Positions 9,533-54,713 of a DNA stretch of 64,000 nucleotides are shown piece after piece. Every line of letters begins with the position of its first letter. The first letter of the stretch is position 1. The notes under the pieces were generated by a model. That model worked only from the letters and a program-made list of their open reading frames with translations. It searched no databases and had not been told where the DNA came from. Source of the stretch: a bacterium (GTDB lineage Bacteria > Zhuqueibacterota > Zhuqueibacteria > Residuimicrobiales > Krinioviventaceae); assembly GCA_963693055.1 (NCBI GenBank), contig OY843751.1, positions 320,001 through 384,000 of the forward strand, given 5' to 3'. A program made the position numbers and the translations under genes.

Positions 9533-9549
9533 TAGATTTTGGGAACTCC

Positions 9550-9581
9550 CCCCACCCGGAGCTCCAGACCTCCGGGTGGGG
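9550..9581. repeat. REP-like palindrome family A, copy 1
   Basis: ccccacccggag...ctccgggtgggg, 12-bp arms. Confidence 0.85.
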
Positions 9582-9816
9582 AAAAATGTATTGTTAAGAC
9601 CGGATAAAAAGCTTGAAATAATGCTAATGAAATATAAAGAGAACCATGAGCTGGGAGATGATTTAATCTGGGATTATACCATAATAACAATTATTTTGTT
9701 TATTATTTCTCTTTCTACGCTAAAAAAGTACGGGATTTAAAATTTGGGTATTACGTTAAAAGTATACGGGTGACAAATAAAAGGTAGCCCTATAAGGATT
9801 CGAGGGGGTTAAGGTC

Positions 9817-10284
9817 ATGAATATTAATTATAAAAGAGTTTCGAGATATCTTTTAATCATATCACTTTTCATTTTTCTTGTTTATTTTGGTGCAAACGTA
9901 GCGAGTCTTTCCTTAATTGGTAAACCTGTAGTAAAAAAAATTAAGTTATATTCTCAATATTATAATGAAAAGATATATATAAAAAAGAAAAGTTGGGGTA
10001 TAACTGGAAGTGGGCAGGTTATTGTTATATCAAAATCCCCTGATAAAGATTTTCAACCTGATGAAACTCAAGAGTATGTATTTAATGGATTACAACCATT
10101 CTGTTATAAATTTGAAAATGATGCACTTTTTATCTTTGTAAGAAAAAAAACAACAATACCTGTAAAAATGTCAACAAAGATTGAAATAAAACAGATCATT
10201 TTGGATAATACTGAAATGATGACGTTATTTGATGATATTCGTGAAGGAAAAGAAAAGACTATACATAATATAGATTGGGAGTGA
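9817..10284 (+). CDS. Hypothetical AT-rich protein with N-terminal TM segment
   Basis: 155-aa ORF, purine-rich RBS, hydrophobic N-terminus. Confidence 0.7.
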   Translation: MNINYKRVSRYLLIISLFIFLVYFGANVASLSLIGKPVVKKIKLYSQYYNEKIYIKKKSWGITGSGQVIVISKSPDKDFQPDETQEYVFNGLQPFCYKFENDALFIFVRKKTTIPVKMSTKIEIKQIILDNTEMMTLFDDIREGKEKTIHNIDWE

Positions 10285-10303
10285 TTATTGGCCCGAGAGT
10301 ACC

Positions 10304-10337
10304 CACCTCCCGGAGGTCCCAGGACCTCCGGGAGGTG
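10304..10337. repeat. REP-like palindrome family A, copy 2
   Basis: cacctcccggaggtcc-ca-ggacctccgggaggtg, 16-bp arms. Confidence 0.85.
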
Positions 10338-10410
10338 AAATTTACTGTTCAATAAATAAAATCAAACTTTAATTAGAGTGTTTGTTATTCAAGTTTTGGA
10401 GTAGTTTCAA

Positions 10411-10731
10411 ATGAAACCACCTATTTTTGTATATGAACCTTTTGACCTTATGATTTTTGAAACAAAAGAGCTGGCTGAAAAGTATCTTGAAGCAGATATT
10501 GTTAAAGATTATGATTATTATGCCTGGGATAGTAATGGTACTACATTGGATTTTATATTTGATGGAAATCGAGTCGAGATCATTCAATTTGAAAACTCTA
10601 AAATAGAACGAAATAAACTAAAAGAGATAATCATTCAAACGTTTATAAATATTGGTATTGATCCCCAATGGTGTGAAAATGCTACATGGGAAGAATTAAT
10701 ACAAAAGAGTCTTGATTATACGATCGAATGA
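10411..10731 (+). CDS. Small acidic hypothetical protein (possibly immunity-like)
   Basis: GGAG RBS, 106 aa, acidic, AT-rich. Confidence 0.7.
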   Translation: MKPPIFVYEPFDLMIFETKELAEKYLEADIVKDYDYYAWDSNGTTLDFIFDGNRVEIIQFENSKIERNKLKEIIIQTFINIGIDPQWCENATWEELIQKSLDYTIE

Positions 10732-10898
10732 TTTAATATAATCTCAAAAAATATAACAATCAGCAACAGTAATGTCAGATCAGTAACAATTTGTCTGGAT
10801 TTGTCTTGAACAGAATTTTTAAATTCAAGGTGAATTACCTGCAAATCCACCTCTCAGAGACTGTTGGGAAATGTCATAAATTTTAAAAATCATCAATT

Positions 10899-11053
10899 CT
10901 CCGTCCCATCCGTCAGCTGACGGATGGGACGGAACTGTGGCTCGAAGCTCTGCTTCGCAAAAATTTTAAAATTAACAATTCGTGTTTTGCTTGACTCTCT
11001 CCAAGTACAGCTTGGAGCCAATTCTCCTTACCAAATAAAATTTGGTAAGGAGA
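10899..11053. repeat. Stacked hairpins (second palindrome family)
   Basis: tccgtcccatccgtcagctgacggatgggacgga; cgaagctctgcttcg; ctccaagtacagcttggag; tctccttaccaaat..atttggtaaggaga. Confidence 0.7.
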
Positions 11054-11068
11054 GTGTTTTTTAACAGG

Positions 11069-11085
11069 CACCCGGAGGTCAGGAC
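11069..11085. repeat. REP-like family A, truncated half copy
   Basis: cacccggaggtcaggac matches the left arm and loop of copy 4. Confidence 0.7.
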
Positions 11086-11132
11086 TTTAATTGAATTATT
11101 GAAAAAATTTTATGTGATTTTATTGATTCTTC

Positions 11133-11160
11133 TTGCAATAAAATTTCTTTTTCGTATATT
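11133..11160 (+). promoter_or_regulatory. Candidate sigma70-type promoter
   Basis: TTGCAA-16-TATATT. Confidence 0.35.
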
Positions 11161-11604
11161 AAATTAATTCCAATTCAAAATATTGCCTATGTTTGGGGAC
11201 ATGTTTTCCGGGGAATATTAAAGCAATTACACAATATGTAGGGTATTGTTATTAGGGTGAAAAGGGTAGTTTTTGTAGTATTATTCTCGTTATTTGCGTT
11301 TGTTTCAGTTTTGTGGGGAAAGGGAAACAATTCAATTGCTGTTACTGATACTTTTTGTCAACAGGTGTCTGTATATTATGCATGGATTTGTAATTCCATC
11401 TTATTTACATTTCTTTTCAACATAATAATTAATCAACAAATAATAGTCAACGGATGTAAATATTTTCATACCACTTTGCTGGGAATGCAAATTGAAGGGA
11501 CCAGTATGATAGGTATGTTCACTACAATTCAAGCCGTTAGCATTGAATGTTCAACACTCATAATAAATAATTAATAAACTGTAATGTTATTAAGGGAGGT
11601 AAGT

Positions 11605-12696
11605 ATGAAAAAGGCAACATTGATCCTTGCAACATTAGCACTATTAATTTCTCTATCCTGTACTCAGGAAAGTCCTGTTGATGTTTCAAAGTCTATCGAG
11701 TTAAACTCGATTAAATCGACAAGTGAAAATGTTACAGTAATCTTTGGCCCTCAAGTTTATACACGTGAAAGGGGAAAGCCTAAGACTGAGGAGATAATGA
11801 TAGAATCTCCTGGTTCTCCAAACAACTATTTTTTGATTATAGAAAATGGTGGAGATGAAAAGAACAGTCAGGTTACCAGTTGTTTTGTGGTATTGGATGA
11901 TGATACGTTGATTTGTCCAATCGATATTACCAAAGATACAGATTTGATAGAAAAAGAAATAGAATTAACAGGAGAAAATTTGCTTTCTATTCGATTAGAT
12001 GGCAAGCCGGGAAGTTATATAACAGTCTCTATTATTATGGAAGAACCTCCCTGCCCGTGTTGTACAGTAACTGACATTGATGGAAATACGTACAATGCTG
12101 TTCAAATCGGTACTCAGTGTTGGATGGTCGAAAATTTAAAGGTTACACATTATCGTAATGGAGATTCAATACCCAACTTGGTCTCTAATTCTGATTGGAT
12201 TAGTACAAGTAATGGTGCTTATTGTATTTATGAAAACAATATTGATAATATCGCTATTTATGGTTTGTTATATAACTGGTATGTGGTCACTGACAATCGT
12301 GAAATTGCTCCTGAGGGATGGCATATTCCTACAGATGATGATTGGAAACAATTGGAAATGTTTCTTGGGATGAGTCAAAACGAAGCTGACGCAACAGGCT
12401 ATAGAGGGACAGATGTTGGTGGGAAATTAAAAGAAACGGGTACAGAATTTTGGACAAGTCCAAATAAAGGTGCTACAAATGAAAGTGGATTTACATCACT
12501 GGGTTCAGCATCTCGCAATTATACAGATGGTGAGTTTAGTACACTTTATAATAATGCATTGTATTGGACAAGTTCTGAATCAGCAAGTGATACTGCTTGG
12601 TATCGCAGGTTGAGTTATCTGTTTAGTACAGTATATCGGGAAGATTATGCTCACAAAAAATATGGATTTTCCATTCGTTGTGTAAAAGACAATTAA
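11605..12696 (+). CDS. FISUMP (Fibrobacter succinogenes major paralogous) domain lipoprotein
   Basis: GGGAGG RBS; lipobox SLSC; TDIDGNTY.AVQIGTQCWMVENL, YGLLYNWY, PEGWHIPT, GFSIRCVKD. Confidence 0.9.
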   Translation: MKKATLILATLALLISLSCTQESPVDVSKSIELNSIKSTSENVTVIFGPQVYTRERGKPKTEEIMIESPGSPNNYFLIIENGGDEKNSQVTSCFVVLDDDTLICPIDITKDTDLIEKEIELTGENLLSIRLDGKPGSYITVSIIMEEPPCPCCTVTDIDGNTYNAVQIGTQCWMVENLKVTHYRNGDSIPNLVSNSDWISTSNGAYCIYENNIDNIAIYGLLYNWYVVTDNREIAPEGWHIPTDDDWKQLEMFLGMSQNEADATGYRGTDVGGKLKETGTEFWTSPNKGATNESGFTSLGSASRNYTDGEFSTLYNNALYWTSSESASDTAWYRRLSYLFSTVYREDYAHKKYGFSIRCVKDN

Positions 12697-12708
12697 TTTG
12701 AGTAAATA

Positions 12709-12746
12709 TTTCCCCACCCGGAGGTCAGGACCTCCGGGTGGGGAAA
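12709..12746. repeat. REP-like palindrome family A, copy 4
   Basis: tttccccacccggaggtc-ag-gacctccgggtggggaaa, 18-bp arms. Confidence 0.85.
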
Positions 12747-13078
12747 AAGTAGCAAACCAGGGGGATAGTATTCCTATTGTACATATTATCCAATGAAATT
12801 GATAACAATCATTACGAATGATGAATATAAAATACTATTGGTTTGTTAAATTAAATAGACTGCTATATAAAACGCTAGAATCCTCTTGTAATCCTCGTGG
12901 TTTAGTAAACACTCTATCCTCATGCAACCAGGAATGCTATTCCTTTCAGTCTTAATAAGAAAAATTTTAATGTAACATATATTTGATTATTCATAAAAAT
13001 TTTAAGGGATAGCAAAATGAATGGTCTGTTAAAGCGTTACAGAGATAAATCCCTGATGGATTTACCGTTGGAGATAAG

Positions 13079-50178: not shown

Positions 50179-52521
50179 ATGGGTAAATCGTTTTTCAGTT
50201 TCCTGATCATTGCATTGACCAGCACATTCTGCCTGGCCGGTGGTGGTCAAAAATCTGCTGTAGATTATGTCGATCCTTTTATTGGTACTGACTTTTTTGC
50301 ACATACCTACCCCGGGGCAGTTGTTCCGTTCAGTATGGTGCAATTGAGTCCTGATACCTATAACCAGGGTTGGACCTATTGTTCCGGTTATCAGTCCAAG
50401 GATTTTTCACTGATGGGATTCAGCCATACCCATCTTTCCGGAACCGGCGGCGCGGAAATGGGTGATATTCTGATCATGCCTACTACCGGACAAAAACTTT
50501 TTGTTGTACCCGGTACGCGTGAAAATCCTGATGAAGGGTACCGTTCCCGTTTCAGCCATGATCGTGAATGGGCAACTCCCGGTTATTACGCGGTTGATTT
50601 GCTGGATTACGGCATAAAAGCAGAGCTGACTGCAACAAAACGTGTGGGAGTTCACCGCTATACTTTTCCCAAAAGTGAAAATGCCCATATCATTATGGAT
50701 CTGACCCATGTGATTGGTGGTGCTCCTGAAGCTCCATCTCATGTAGAGTTTGTAAATAATTACAAAATGCAGGGTTGGAAGCAAGGTTCAACTGTTAAAG
50801 TGTATTTTGTTGCCGAGTTCAGCAAACCTTTTGCAGCTTTTGGCACTTGGGACACCTCTTACGATATGCCGGAATCCGATGAAGATCTGTATCCTTATCA
50901 CACGCACGAAACCGGTAATGCAATTGGTGCATTTGTCAATTATGTGACAACCGAAGGTGAACAGGTTGTTGTCAAAGTTGCAATTTCTTATGTAAGTGTA
51001 GAAGGCGCACAGAAAAATTTGGATGCCGAAGTTCCCCATTGGGATTTTGAACAGGTCCGTTATGAGGCCCGTGAAACCTGGGCAAAAGCATTGTCTGCCA
51101 TTGATATTCAAGGCGGAACTGAAGATCAGAAACAGATCTTTTATACCGGATTGTATCATTCATTACTACCCCAGTACATCAGTTCGGATGTAGATGGTAA
51201 ATATGTAGGTATGGATGGCAGTATTCAGACCGCAAAAGATTTCGAGTTTTTCCCCACATTTCTGGCCTGGGATACGTTTCGTTCAGAACATCCATTGATT
51301 ACCCTGGTAGCTCCCGAATATGTGGATGATATTGTAAAATCCATTGAATCCAAAGTCAGAACATATGGCTGGCTGCCGGCACAGCATACACGTAACCAGT
51401 TCCAACAGGGCATGGTGGGTGACCACCTGGTGCCTATTGTGGTAGATGCCTATATGAAGGGTTTTCGTGATTTTGATGTAGAGTTTTTGTACAATGCCAT
51501 GAAAGCCAAGGCGACTACAGAGGCGCCATCCAAATATCCCAGCGATCACAGTCGCTCCGGTATCGATTATACCAACAAGTTGGGGTATGCTCCGTGCGAT
51601 CGTATTACAGAATCGGTTTCCAATACTCTTGAATTTGCCTATAACGACTGGTGTCTGGCGCAGATGGCCAAAGAGATGGGCAAGATGGATGATTATGAAA
51701 TGTTTATGAAAAAAGCCGGAAATTATAAAAATGTGTGGGATTCAGAAACACGTTTTATGCGTCCGCGCAAAGTGAATGGTGATTTTCTTGAATTAAAAAC
51801 TGATAAACAGGAAATTAAACATTACAAAGACCATTCTTATTTTGGCTATTTTGATCCATTTTTGATTGGCCGCAGACCCAATCGCCACTATTCAGAATCT
51901 GATGCATGGGATTATCTCTGGTTTGTTCCGCATGATCCCAAAGGACTTGTTAATTTGTTTGGCAGTCAAGATGCTTTTATTGCCAAGCTGGATAGCCACT
52001 TTACCATAAGTCCTGAAGTTTCTTTTCCGAAATATGTCGGTGTTGTGGGTACCTATGGTCAATATGTTCATGGTAACCAGCCTGCTCATCATGTGGCCTA
52101 TATGTATGATTACGCGGGCCAGCCCTGGAAAACCCAAATGCGTACCCGTCACATCATGGACTTTTTGTATCGCACCGGTCGTGCCGGTATCTGCGGTAAT
52201 GATGATATGGGTTCATTATCATCATGGTATGTGTTGAGCGCAATGGGATTTTACCCTGTTAGTCCCGGCTCTAACGAATATGCTATCGGTTCACCCTTGT
52301 TTGATAAAGCAACAATCAATCTTGGTGCACCATACAGTGGTAAGGAATTTACAGTCAAGGCTGTAAATGTTTCTGCAGAGAATAAATACATCCAGTCCGC
52401 AAAACTGAATGGCAGAGACCTGAATAAAGCAATTCTTTCTCAGGAAGCCATTGCGAATGGCGGTACCCTGGAATTGATTATGGGACCCGATCCCAATAAA
52501 TCATGGGGTTTGGGAAAATAG
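50179..52521 (+). CDS. GH92 family alpha-mannosidase
   Basis: YVDPFIGT, PGAVVPFSMVQLSPD, GFSHTHLSGTG, WDTFRS.HP, HGNQP.HH, GNDDMGSLSSWY. Confidence 0.95.
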   Translation: MGKSFFSFLIIALTSTFCLAGGGQKSAVDYVDPFIGTDFFAHTYPGAVVPFSMVQLSPDTYNQGWTYCSGYQSKDFSLMGFSHTHLSGTGGAEMGDILIMPTTGQKLFVVPGTRENPDEGYRSRFSHDREWATPGYYAVDLLDYGIKAELTATKRVGVHRYTFPKSENAHIIMDLTHVIGGAPEAPSHVEFVNNYKMQGWKQGSTVKVYFVAEFSKPFAAFGTWDTSYDMPESDEDLYPYHTHETGNAIGAFVNYVTTEGEQVVVKVAISYVSVEGAQKNLDAEVPHWDFEQVRYEARETWAKALSAIDIQGGTEDQKQIFYTGLYHSLLPQYISSDVDGKYVGMDGSIQTAKDFEFFPTFLAWDTFRSEHPLITLVAPEYVDDIVKSIESKVRTYGWLPAQHTRNQFQQGMVGDHLVPIVVDAYMKGFRDFDVEFLYNAMKAKATTEAPSKYPSDHSRSGIDYTNKLGYAPCDRITESVSNTLEFAYNDWCLAQMAKEMGKMDDYEMFMKKAGNYKNVWDSETRFMRPRKVNGDFLELKTDKQEIKHYKDHSYFGYFDPFLIGRRPNRHYSESDAWDYLWFVPHDPKGLVNLFGSQDAFIAKLDSHFTISPEVSFPKYVGVVGTYGQYVHGNQPAHHVAYMYDYAGQPWKTQMRTRHIMDFLYRTGRAGICGNDDMGSLSSWYVLSAMGFYPVSPGSNEYAIGSPLFDKATINLGAPYSGKEFTVKAVNVSAENKYIQSAKLNGRDLNKAILSQEAIANGGTLELIMGPDPNKSWGLGK

Positions 52522-52542
52522 AGTTTTAATGGATTTCTTAAA

Positions 52543-52571
52543 GTAGGGAACGGTCTTAGACCGTTCCCTAC
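52543..52571. repeat. GTAG-type REP palindrome, copy 1
   Basis: gtagggaacggtct-t-agaccgttccctac. Confidence 0.92.
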
Positions 52572-52596
52572 AATTTATAAAGTATATGGGGTCTTT

Positions 52597-53133
52597 ATGA
52601 ACAGGGGTAGCAAATTTTTTTTATTCATTCTTTTTCTCTCTAGTGCTTGTATTAGTGATGAATTGGATGAAAGGATATCTTATATTTCGGATATGCCTTA
52701 TTGTCCTGAATATTCCGGTGATTCATTATATTGGGATATTGTTAAAGATGGCTTAGTGATAGTCCCTCAGTTGATCGATAAACTAAATGATAGCACAACC
52801 ACAGAGCTAATTGTACCACTTTGGGGTGGTTATTATACTGTTGCAGATATATCACATCTATTAATTTGGAATATCATACAGGATGTACCTATTCTCGATC
52901 TTGTCGGTTCCACACAAGAAGAAAGGGATCAAGATGGATATGGATGTTACTGGGCGTTTGTGAGGAAAGATTATCAGAATCGTATAATTCTTCAAAGTAG
53001 GATCAGACATTGGTTTGAGAAGAATAAGGACAATTTGGTATGGAAAAAAGAATTACGTGTTGTTGAACCAAACGATCGTATGTATCCTGTGAATCATCCG
53101 GCAGGAGGATATTTTATTTTAAAAGAAAAATGA
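52597..53133 (+). CDS. Hypothetical lipoprotein (REP-bracketed cargo)
   Basis: 178 aa, lipobox-like LSSAC. Confidence 0.75.
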   Translation: MNRGSKFFLFILFLSSACISDELDERISYISDMPYCPEYSGDSLYWDIVKDGLVIVPQLIDKLNDSTTTELIVPLWGGYYTVADISHLLIWNIIQDVPILDLVGSTQEERDQDGYGCYWAFVRKDYQNRIILQSRIRHWFEKNKDNLVWKKELRVVEPNDRMYPVNHPAGGYFILKEK

Positions 53134-53143
53134 AAATTTGCAA

Positions 53144-53172
53144 GTAGGGAACGGTCTCAGACCGTTCCCTAC
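53144..53172. repeat. GTAG-type REP palindrome, copy 2
   Basis: gtagggaacggtct-c-agaccgttccctac. Confidence 0.92.
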
Positions 53173-53197
53173 AATTGTGAATTTTAATGGGGGTGTT

Positions 53198-53698
53198 TTG
53201 AATTATAGAGATAGGAAATTACAACGTCTTCCCGGATATGACTATACTCAAGATGGCAAATATTTTGTAACCTTTTGTGTTAAAGATAAACGATGTATCT
53301 TGGGCCAAGTGAAAAATGGATTTATGGAGTTGAATAAATTTGGAATGATTGTATATGACTGTTACCTTGATTTATTAAATCATTATGAAAATTGTTTACC
53401 CCAAGATTATATAATAATGCCTAATCATGTGCACTGTGTCATAAAAATTGATAATTCAAAAATTAAGATTCCGGATAATGCGAATGATCCTTTTTGCAGA
53501 TATGGTTTGTCTGAAATGGTCAGAGCTTGGAAGTCTTTTTCATCAAAACGGATAAATGAAAATTATGAGGACTATTTTAAATGGCAAAAGTCTTTTTATG
53601 ATCATATTATTCGTAATGAAAAAGAATTATATGCCATAAAAAAATATATAAAGAACAATCCTGGGAAATGGGATGAAGATAGATTCTTTTATGAATAG
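53198..53698 (+). CDS. REP-associated tyrosine transposase (RAYT, HUH Y1)
   Basis: RLPGYDY...YFVTFC, IMPNHVH, WQKSFYDHIIR, YIKNNP..W; flanked by REPs; TTG start after GGGGG. Confidence 0.93.
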   Translation: MNYRDRKLQRLPGYDYTQDGKYFVTFCVKDKRCILGQVKNGFMELNKFGMIVYDCYLDLLNHYENCLPQDYIIMPNHVHCVIKIDNSKIKIPDNANDPFCRYGLSEMVRAWKSFSSKRINENYEDYFKWQKSFYDHIIRNEKELYAIKKYIKNNPGKWDEDRFFYE

Positions 53699-53707
53699 AA
53701 AAAAGTA

Positions 53708-53736
53708 GTAGGGAACGGTCTCAGACCGTTCCCTAC
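53708..53736. repeat. GTAG-type REP palindrome, copy 3
   Basis: Identical to copy 2. Confidence 0.92.
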
Positions 53737-53753
53737 TCGAATTTAGCTTATTT

Positions 53754-54713
53754 TTATTCCTCAATACAAATTTCTTTTCTGCCAATGGCTTTAAATGTTT
53801 TGATCAATAATATTGCAATGATCAGGATCAAAACAACCAAAGCTGCCAAAGCAATAACTTTAAATATTATATAATGCGTTACATGAGACATGAGTATAGA
53901 TGCCAGAACAAATGCCGCAAGTGGAAAGGTATAGGCCCACCATGACAGGAAAAAATTGATCTTTATAAAGTTTTTACCCTGCATAAATATAAAGAAAAAG
54001 AGAAATAAAGCTGAATAATAGAGTATACGCGCGAACACATCAAATTCACCGGTGAGCTTGTTGTAAGCAATAAAGCCAATGGCTGGCGCCGCAAAGAGAA
54101 TAAATAGCGTTGGCAGCAGCTTGTCTGGCAATGGATCATGAAAAATCAAACGGTAAAAGATGATGGTGGTCAGCATGATCATCCAGATGGTTCCGATGGT
54201 GAAAAAGAACCAGGATATTTCGGGATGTGCGTGTTGTACACCGGCAATGGGAACAATGATATTGCCCACAACCGGGATGAACCATGCAGGACTCAGATGG
54301 TGGATCTTGAAATGTTTATGCGTGACCCAGGCGTTTATAATACTGAAACCAAAAATCAGTGTAAGCACAACACCGGCAATCCACAATCCTTTGGATACAC
54401 TCATGTTGAGCTGTAAAAACGCTACACTCAATACCAGAGGGACTTTGGCTATAAGCGGGAAAAAATTGATCTTGATGGGATGATGATACTCTTCAATCAC
54501 ATCTTGTCTGAACATGATGAGTTTAAATCCGTAAAACACAAGCATGGTAATATATAATAGTATGGTAAATCCAATAAATCCTAAACTCACTGTATGGGGT
54601 AAAAAGGGTACCAGTGATTCTGTTTTGAGAAGAGCCAGAGAAAATCCGGCAAATCCCAATACGGGTGCAAAGAATGAAATGGGAAAGTGTTTTAATCTCA
54701 ACTGGTGTGTCAT
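53754..54713 (-). CDS. tehA: SLAC1/TehA family anion channel
   Basis: FPISFFAPVLG, HPIKINFFP, PAWFIPVVGNIIVP, PTLFIL.AAPA, SWWAYTFPL. Confidence 0.85.
   Translation of the reverse strand: MTHQLRLKHFPISFFAPVLGFAGFSLALLKTESLVPFLPHTVSLGFIGFTILLYITMLVFYGFKLIMFRQDVIEEYHHPIKINFFPLIAKVPLVLSVAFLQLNMSVSKGLWIAGVVLTLIFGFSIINAWVTHKHFKIHHLSPAWFIPVVGNIIVPIAGVQHAHPEISWFFFTIGTIWMIMLTTIIFYRLIFHDPLPDKLLPTLFILFAAPAIGFIAYNKLTGEFDVFARILYYSALFLFFFIFMQGKNFIKINFFLSWWAYTFPLAAFVLASILMSHVTHYIIFKVIALAALVVLILIIAILLIKTFKAIGRKEICIEE

Follow-up and report, generated by a model that had tools for sequence, protein, structure and literature searches.

A REP-flanked RAYT gene and a likely foreign ORF behind an apparent second copy of its REP-leader module

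A REPtron with a passenger gene

We describe a locus in which a RAYT gene and a likely foreign ORF each begin behind a REP hairpin and a related ribosome-binding leader, in the order REP-ORF-REP-RAYT-REP. Judging from sequence, we see about an even chance that a REPtron gained a one-off passenger here, the RAYT having copied its own REP and RBS module in front of the foreign gene; the locus has the look of a single capture, or of a donated leader, and not that of a gene-exchanging array. The REPtron is a known arrangement, and gene sequestering by a RAYT was proposed in 2012, as the available text of PMC3333891 has it; what is new is the passenger behind a duplicated leader. The locus constitutes a small test case, since its 166-aa enzyme is intact, its three REPs are clean, it has one passenger and a natural empty site exists: excision or joining of the 601-bp unit by the RAYT would turn the proposed sequestering of genes by TnpA_REP into fact. 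The locus also bears on the question of what RAYTs bring to their hosts.

In the window (the whole 64,000-nucleotide stretch that was analysed, from a closed, 6.5-Mb genome), the locus lies between two convergent genes that are conserved in the sister species, a GH92 glycoside hydrolase on the left (50179..52521, plus strand) and a SLAC1-family (PF03595) channel on the right (53754..54713, minus strand). REP1 (52543..52571) starts 21 nt after the GH92 stop. It is followed by leader 1 (52572..52596, plus strand), which carries a GGGG ribosome-binding-like run and is homologous to the RAYT leader, and by the cargo ORF (52597..53133, plus strand), which encodes 178 aa and is predicted to be secreted, possibly as a lipoprotein. 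REP2 (53144..53172) comes next, then the RAYT leader with a GGGGG ribosome-binding-like run (53173..53197, plus strand), the RAYT or TnpA_REP gene itself (53198..53698, plus strand; 166 aa, PF01797) and finally REP3 (53708..53736). The order of the three 29-bp GTAG…CTAC hairpins, the 178-aa ORF and the intact RAYT is as the earlier note had described it, and so is the equal spacing: the cargo ATG at 52597 and the RAYT TTG at 53198 each stand 25 nt behind their REP. The short gaps of 9-10 nt between stops and REPs were also found, with the cargo stop (53133) 10 nt before REP2 and the RAYT stop (53698) 9 nt before REP3. GC content is 34.8% in the cargo and 28.9% in the RAYT against 43.8% and 39.0% in the flanking genes. 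A promoter scan stayed at chance level (6 found against 7.9 expected); both ORFs may be read through from GH92. REP3 is followed by a T-run on the minus strand and is terminator-like for the convergent SLAC1-family gene, so that it may have a double role.

All three REPs have 14-bp arms flanking one unpaired base, T in REP1 and C in REP2 and REP3, and each runs from a 5' GTAG to a 3' CTAC; the copies are near-identical and fold with z-scores of -5.7 to -7.3 relative to shuffles.

The enzyme is a class 2 RAYT with double-foot REPs

By its domain, its motifs and its REPs, the enzyme is a class 2 HUH/Y1 TnpA_REP/RAYT protein. It matches the Y1_Tnp domain (PF01797) at 29.6 bits (cut-off 23) and NF047646 at 49 bits, below the cut-off of 80; its HuH motif (H77-V78-H79) and its Y---NP motif (Y150-I-K-N-N-P, Y-x3-NP) are invariant or nearly so among homologues and are intact here; GTAG REPs both flank it and are dispersed in the genome; and it is of low copy number, with one copy of the gene in the genome. 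An in-frame GTG lies 3 nt before the TTG at which we place the start; the closest homologues begin near the TTG, which makes it a reasonable choice. An IS200/IS605 element with a passenger was ruled out by the Y---NP motif (class 1 has Y---Q), by the identical REPs at both ends and by the single copy. The score against NF033573 was only 14 bits against 55.

TnpA_REP subclass 2.4 is defined by a double-foot REP in the accessible parts of Quentin et al. 2018 (10.1101/279083), and the GTAG…CTAC double foot is present in 3/3 copies here. We treat the RAYT as 2.4-like, an assignment that rests on the REP type and the homologues rather than on subclass HMMs or a tree. Compared with the subclass 2.4 REPtrons of that account, the insertion or internal REP is absent from this RAYT and a REP-leader-ORF unit is added upstream; passenger genes are not described in the sections consulted (10.1101/279083). 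The closest homologues carry a VGNGLKPFPT-type peptide, and an internal hairpin occurs in 52 of 64 related loci (drawn from the best 80 of 576 confirmed stretches). Our search found no bench study of 'double foot' or 'subclass 2.4' RAYTs beyond the 2018 classification, and the subclass appears unstudied at the bench.

A repeated REP-leader module in register with both starts

The likeness of the two leaders, 15/25 identical positions, proved to be as the earlier note had counted it. The same identity is reached by 9/829 predicted genome leaders with leader 1 and by 7/829 with leader 2 (~1%). When each leader is taken together with the 15 nt upstream of its REP, the flanks of REP1 and REP2 are identical at 24/40 positions (p=1.25e-4 against AT-rich intergenic DNA), so that the repeated unit is a module of ~70 bp, more than the palindrome alone. 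The likeness extends into the start codons, as direct repeats in register, and on these alignments the REP1 and REP2 modules are homologous. The cargo ORF starts where module 1 ends, reaches the base of module 2 and adds no spacer, leader or tail to them; the predicted extended hairpin around REP2 (53133..53185, plus strand), which has a lower stem after a 2-nt bulge, opens on the final base of the cargo's stop codon. REP2 is the top match to both REP1 flanks among 13 other sites. All REP copies share some of this flank likeness as a feature of the family, so that an origin of REP1 from REP2 specifically is not required.

We propose that the RAYT placed a copy of the module that precedes it, comprising REP, flanks and ribosome-binding leader, before a likely horizontally acquired gene. 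The copying would act on single-stranded DNA, through HUH cleavage followed by strand transfer, a step with an in vitro precedent in E. coli TnpA_REP; cleavage and strand transfer by TnpA_REP have been shown for other proteins, as far as the portions consulted of PMC8266576 and PMC3333891 go. The block would afterwards be kept or lost whole, as one unit, between species.

Two rivals of this proposal meet the module directly. The first holds that cargo and REPtron are incidental neighbours: the cargo would have entered a variable gap by ordinary horizontal transfer, the REPtron would have sat or landed alongside, REP1 would reflect local seeding, and one later deletion or replacement would account for the sister. 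We think this rather unlikely, given that the cargo has neither leader nor tail of its own, that its start is in exact register with that of the RAYT (an equality rare elsewhere, see below) and that REP2 is the best match to both REP1 flanks; observations in its favour are pointed out where they arise. The second is a host-driven tandem duplication of REP-leader-RAYT, after which the cargo replaced the first RAYT ORF and in which RAYT catalysis took no part. Such a duplication would leave direct repeats whose register holds into the start codon, as the modules do, but it requires two events, neither the cargo nor its surroundings show a RAYT remnant, and the cargo is complete at either end; we regard it as very improbable.

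The sister species has an empty site

G001 is the only sister species, a congener, and our comparison is one of two species. Its identity to the window is 92% on one side and 87% on the other of an indel block of 1,228 bp (52523..53750), whose edges lie ~20 nt outside REP1 and ~14 nt outside REP3; in place of the block, its gap between GH92 and the convergent SLAC1 gene contains 93 unrelated bases with an unrelated hairpin. That this gap has another hairpin in the sister is one of the points that favour incidental neighbours. The cargo was not found elsewhere in G001, and G001 has no match to this RAYT. The earlier note named a cargo gene syntenic without REPs in relatives as a refutation; the sister does not show this, as it lacks the whole REP1-REP3 block. 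The joint with the 93-base replacement was also found in two public runs (X4, X5), which may be G001's source, as X1 and X3 may be the source of the window, so that neither pair counts as independent support. Among the contigs of the sister and of the runs, which drop rare variants, we found neither a REP-RAYT-REP locus minus the 601-bp unit nor a slot with other cargo.

The weight of this empty site is limited, since gene indels are a common background in this species pair. In an 800-kb sample of G001 (~12% of it), 32 blocks of >300 bp are specific to this genome, and 13 other gene-carrying blocks stand on near-empty sister sites; indels of this frequency again favour incidental neighbours. 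Hairpins are not enriched at indel edges (10/64 edges against 32/300 controls), and the RAYT/cargo block is the only one of the 32 specific blocks with hairpins at both edges in that sample.

The SLAC1 gene occurs in 2/43 genomes of the order, both within the genus, and there being no outgroup with this gene, gain versus loss of the block is not polarised. The module flanks are 40% diverged against ~10% for orthologous DNA of the two species, and the capture event may thus be old. This old divergence, together with decayed REPs shared by the two species, makes it more likely that the sister lost the block than that it never had it.

The REP family and the cassette question

The REP family has 13 copies within 6 mismatches in this genome, 10 of them away from the locus, and its pattern was found in 2/167 genomes of the phylum, this one and G001. 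The latter has 9 REP copies within 3 mismatches, of which 7 lie in blocks that align to REP sites here; two more sites have decayed counterparts. Since REP sites are common to both species and the RAYT is missing in G001, the enzyme was likely active before the split of the two species.

The earlier note had read the REP-to-REP units as gene cassettes with a standard RBS slot. In its strongest form this is an integron-like system, in which the units are exchangeable and the RAYT excises and inserts them. The anatomy of the locus is indeed cassette-like, but the remainder of the closed genome does not bear out a general system: there is one unit only, a look at its 10 other REP sites showed no second REP-leader-cargo unit, and the two further REP-gene-REP arrangements that were tested are syntenic with the sister. 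A multi-unit exchangeable array was rejected for the same single cargo unit and for the absence of alternative cargo in the sister. We consider the integron-like system improbable.

Parts of the module do recur in the genome. At a dispersed REP (4212979) the 3' flank is no worse a match to the RAYT leader than that of REP1 (0/5,000 null draws), and 5' flanks near 5.44 Mb match the 5' flank of REP2; about 150 comparisons were made, so that the strongest matches alone count. RAYT-like flanks on dispersed REPs, and on a gene-less copy in another genome (L154, see below), speak against a general cassette system and for copying of REP and leader together. Elsewhere, at G000:C1:1572998-1576776 and in the corresponding sister locus L206, two REPs of the family bracket a tandem array of paralogous secreted-protein genes, 2 here and 3 in the sister, and homology with the sister resumes at the right REP foot.

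The array at 9.5-12.7 kb of the window, in which an echo of the locus had been seen, is not part of the REP/RAYT system. Its hairpins belong to a different family that lacks GTAG and has 3 copies within 7 mismatches genome-wide, and its ORFs start 235 and 73 nt after hairpins, with no fixed leader. The interval 9550-12748 is a variable slot: homology with the sister stops at 9549, the foot of the first hairpin, and small ORFs and a FISUMP-domain protein here stand opposite ~7 kb of other genes in the sister, with a different hairpin at the same edge.

A wider REP motif was found at 8 viral loci and at 7 loci of other genomes of the phylum, with 0 RAYT or cargo matches. In the 8 viral contigs (L220-L227) the double-foot REPs have the same stem ends, some lie within reading frames, and no RAYT lies within 3 kb.

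RAYT loci elsewhere

A single-sequence search of genome contigs for the RAYT found nothing; an alignment search of the same contigs yielded 576 confirmed stretches, of which the best 80 gave 79 loci. In this set (best 80 of 576) 64/79 RAYT loci have a cognate hairpin, and 9 were picked out as REP-ORF-REP. At 2/79 (L131 and L173, again among the best 80 of 576) the RAYT adjoins a tight unit of one gene, an ORF without a family; the other loci picked out are loose, multi-gene or made of long genes. These two units favour the integron-like system, and their rarity speaks against it. Viral collections held 3 RAYT loci.

The spacing can be judged from 18 other RAYT loci, drawn from the best 80 of 576. 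The distance from REP to RAYT start ranges there from 7 to 96 nt, which contradicts a standard slot and, with it, the cassette reading; yet the distance is equal in 2/153 pairs, so that chance is an unlikely source of the exact 25-nt match here. Among other REP flanks in 22 loci, 0/66 showed a RAYT-like leader ahead of a proper ORF start, a further point against the integron-like system, in a test that missed L109.

Two loci show how such an arrangement may arise. At L154, the RAYT's REP, RBS and ATG are copied 4.7 kb away, with a mere 27-codon frame behind them and no gene. At L109, whose RAYT is the closest among the surveyed loci (49%, among the best 80 of 576), a similar REP-leader stands ahead of a frameshifted methylase gene, confirmed as such, which is cut off at the RAYT's REP; after the RAYT there is an apparent tail of what we take to be a restriction gene. 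The two loci point to a likely mechanism in which REP modules are copied with the RAYT leader, this is accompanied by local rearrangement, and a gene sometimes comes to stand behind the copied module.

REPs also fill gaps around RAYTs whatever the gene, next to a presumably ferredoxin-like ORF at L131 and to what we take to be CRISPR-like genes at L154, as incidental neighbours would have it. Many related RAYTs lie in or beside operons that we take, mostly from N-terminal sequences, to be of the restriction-modification type (L109, L112, L114, L120, L130, L174, L179, L007, L009-L011, L014 and L015).

REPtrons in the two species

Four RAYT-like loci were examined in the two species, one of them the locus described here, which G001 lacks, and none is common, intact and at one site, to both. 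The window has one degenerate hairpin at about 58.42-58.48 kb where the sister has REP-RAYT(144 aa)-REP (L056, G001:C3:2392562-2393357) with ~45 nt of duplicated flank, so that a second RAYT type is represented by one filled and one empty site. Duplicated flanks there against one REP here indicate that direct-repeat recombination could occur, a point in favour of the host-driven duplication. G000:C1:6442211-6443008 and L052 (G001:C2 about 1359600-1360406) are REPtrons of the same type at non-orthologous sites; they are ~82% identical from GTAG foot to foot, where homology ends, they share no cargo, and the copy here is frameshifted. A second REPtron type at different sites in the two species and with no shared cargo is again a point in favour of incidental neighbours. 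L052 lies within a 1.6-kb G001 block with a 142-aa ORF starting ~24 nt after a REP. Finally, L051 (G001:C3:339249-342500) has a RAYT-like gene of 177 aa in a long paired-hairpin array, and this gene has no match in this genome.

The sequence comparison of this pair suggests that whole REPtrons move, and the four loci together suggest that in this lineage complete REPtrons are gained and lost or relocate. RAYTs are pictured as stable and vertically inherited in the parts available of PMC5581495 and PMC3333891, and our comparison of two species sits uneasily with this picture; RAYT loss and patchy distribution are already known.

Among the nearest described systems is the E. coli REPtron with its BIMEs, for which Ton-Hoang et al. 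2012 (PMC3333891), in the text at hand, proposed that distant cleavage followed by strand transfer captures genes, with codA-cynR and tnpA_REP as examples. There, as here, the RAYT is bordered by REPs; BIMEs there are replaced by single double-foot REPs here, and the cargo here is foreign and apparently uses a copy of the RAYT leader. The tnpA_REP–prochlorosin association of picocyanobacteria likewise has RAYTs beside variable accessory genes, with a diversifying mechanism proposed in the passages seen (10.1101/2020.03.09.984088). Our literature search, with most subscription papers outside it, found no RAYT cassette system described.

The cargo family and integron cassettes

The cargo has 382 relatives at E<=0.001 and no Pfam or NCBIfam family. 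The earlier note called it a lipoprotein, which is plausible in that its signal ends in L-S-S-A-C, but this Cys is missing from the two closest homologues. A confident AlphaFold model (pLDDT 92.6) is mostly helical. Foldseek returned no PDB match for it at E<=0.001 and a wide search reached a best Z of 4.0; neither shows a known or a new fold, and the model may possibly represent an undescribed one. A lead to DUF4943 (PF16301) came from language-model neighbours at 0.93, with DUF4943 in 12% and 99% of members and a recognition value of 2261 (the tool's threshold being 2300); a PF16301 match was found in 0/69 aligned cargo homologues at E<=0.1. Within the phylum the family occurs in 3/167 genomes in unrelated contexts, and the two others have no adjoining REPs. 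The cargo is likely foreign, acquired by horizontal transfer.

Integron cassettes and CALINs consist of promoterless single ORFs with minimal spacers and repeated hairpin sites, CALINs by definition being without an integrase. The anatomy here is similar, with one unit only and a HUH enzyme in place of the tyrosine recombinase. Metagenomes supplied 35 loci with cargo homologues, 32 of them with a complete ORF. Integron-type core sites (a GTT word upstream, its complement after the stop) occur at 14/32 complete loci and in 9/22 clusters, against 92/3,859 host ORFs (2.4%), with attC-likeness judged by this core-site test alone. The cargo family thus often has cassette-type core sites elsewhere, which favours the integron-like system, as does the parallel between single-stranded hairpin chemistry and attC recombination. 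Against it, 0/35 metagenome loci had, within 1.5 kb of the cargo homologue, a RAYT hit or a GC-rich hairpin of at least 11 bp in the stem. An integron or CALIN at the locus itself was rejected: no attC-like core sites follow the cargo, the sole GTT/AAC complement being an arm of the REP, REP2, 10 nt past the stop. The integron integrase TIGR02249 was found above cut-off in 0/2 genomes, those of the two species. Put together, these sequences suggest that the cargo is a habitually mobile, probably secreted protein, here bounded by REPs rather than attC.

It is tempting to speculate that double-foot-REP RAYTs are a HUH-based analogue of integrons, REP and leader serving as recombination site and portable RBS, which would capture, express and swap promoterless genes from the integron-cassette pool. 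We give this little credence; if true, it would provide a concrete host benefit for RAYTs regarded as 'domesticated'.

A cargo homologue at L200:1498-2061 (G142) has what we take to be a recA-like gene directly before it and a recX-like gene after it, and a presumably recA-like fragment also lies upstream of the homologue in L091. In L077 and L078, at about 6986, an ORF ~1.5 kb downstream of the cargo homologue starts with VGAACLRP, which at the peptide level resembles a translated GTAG-type REP.
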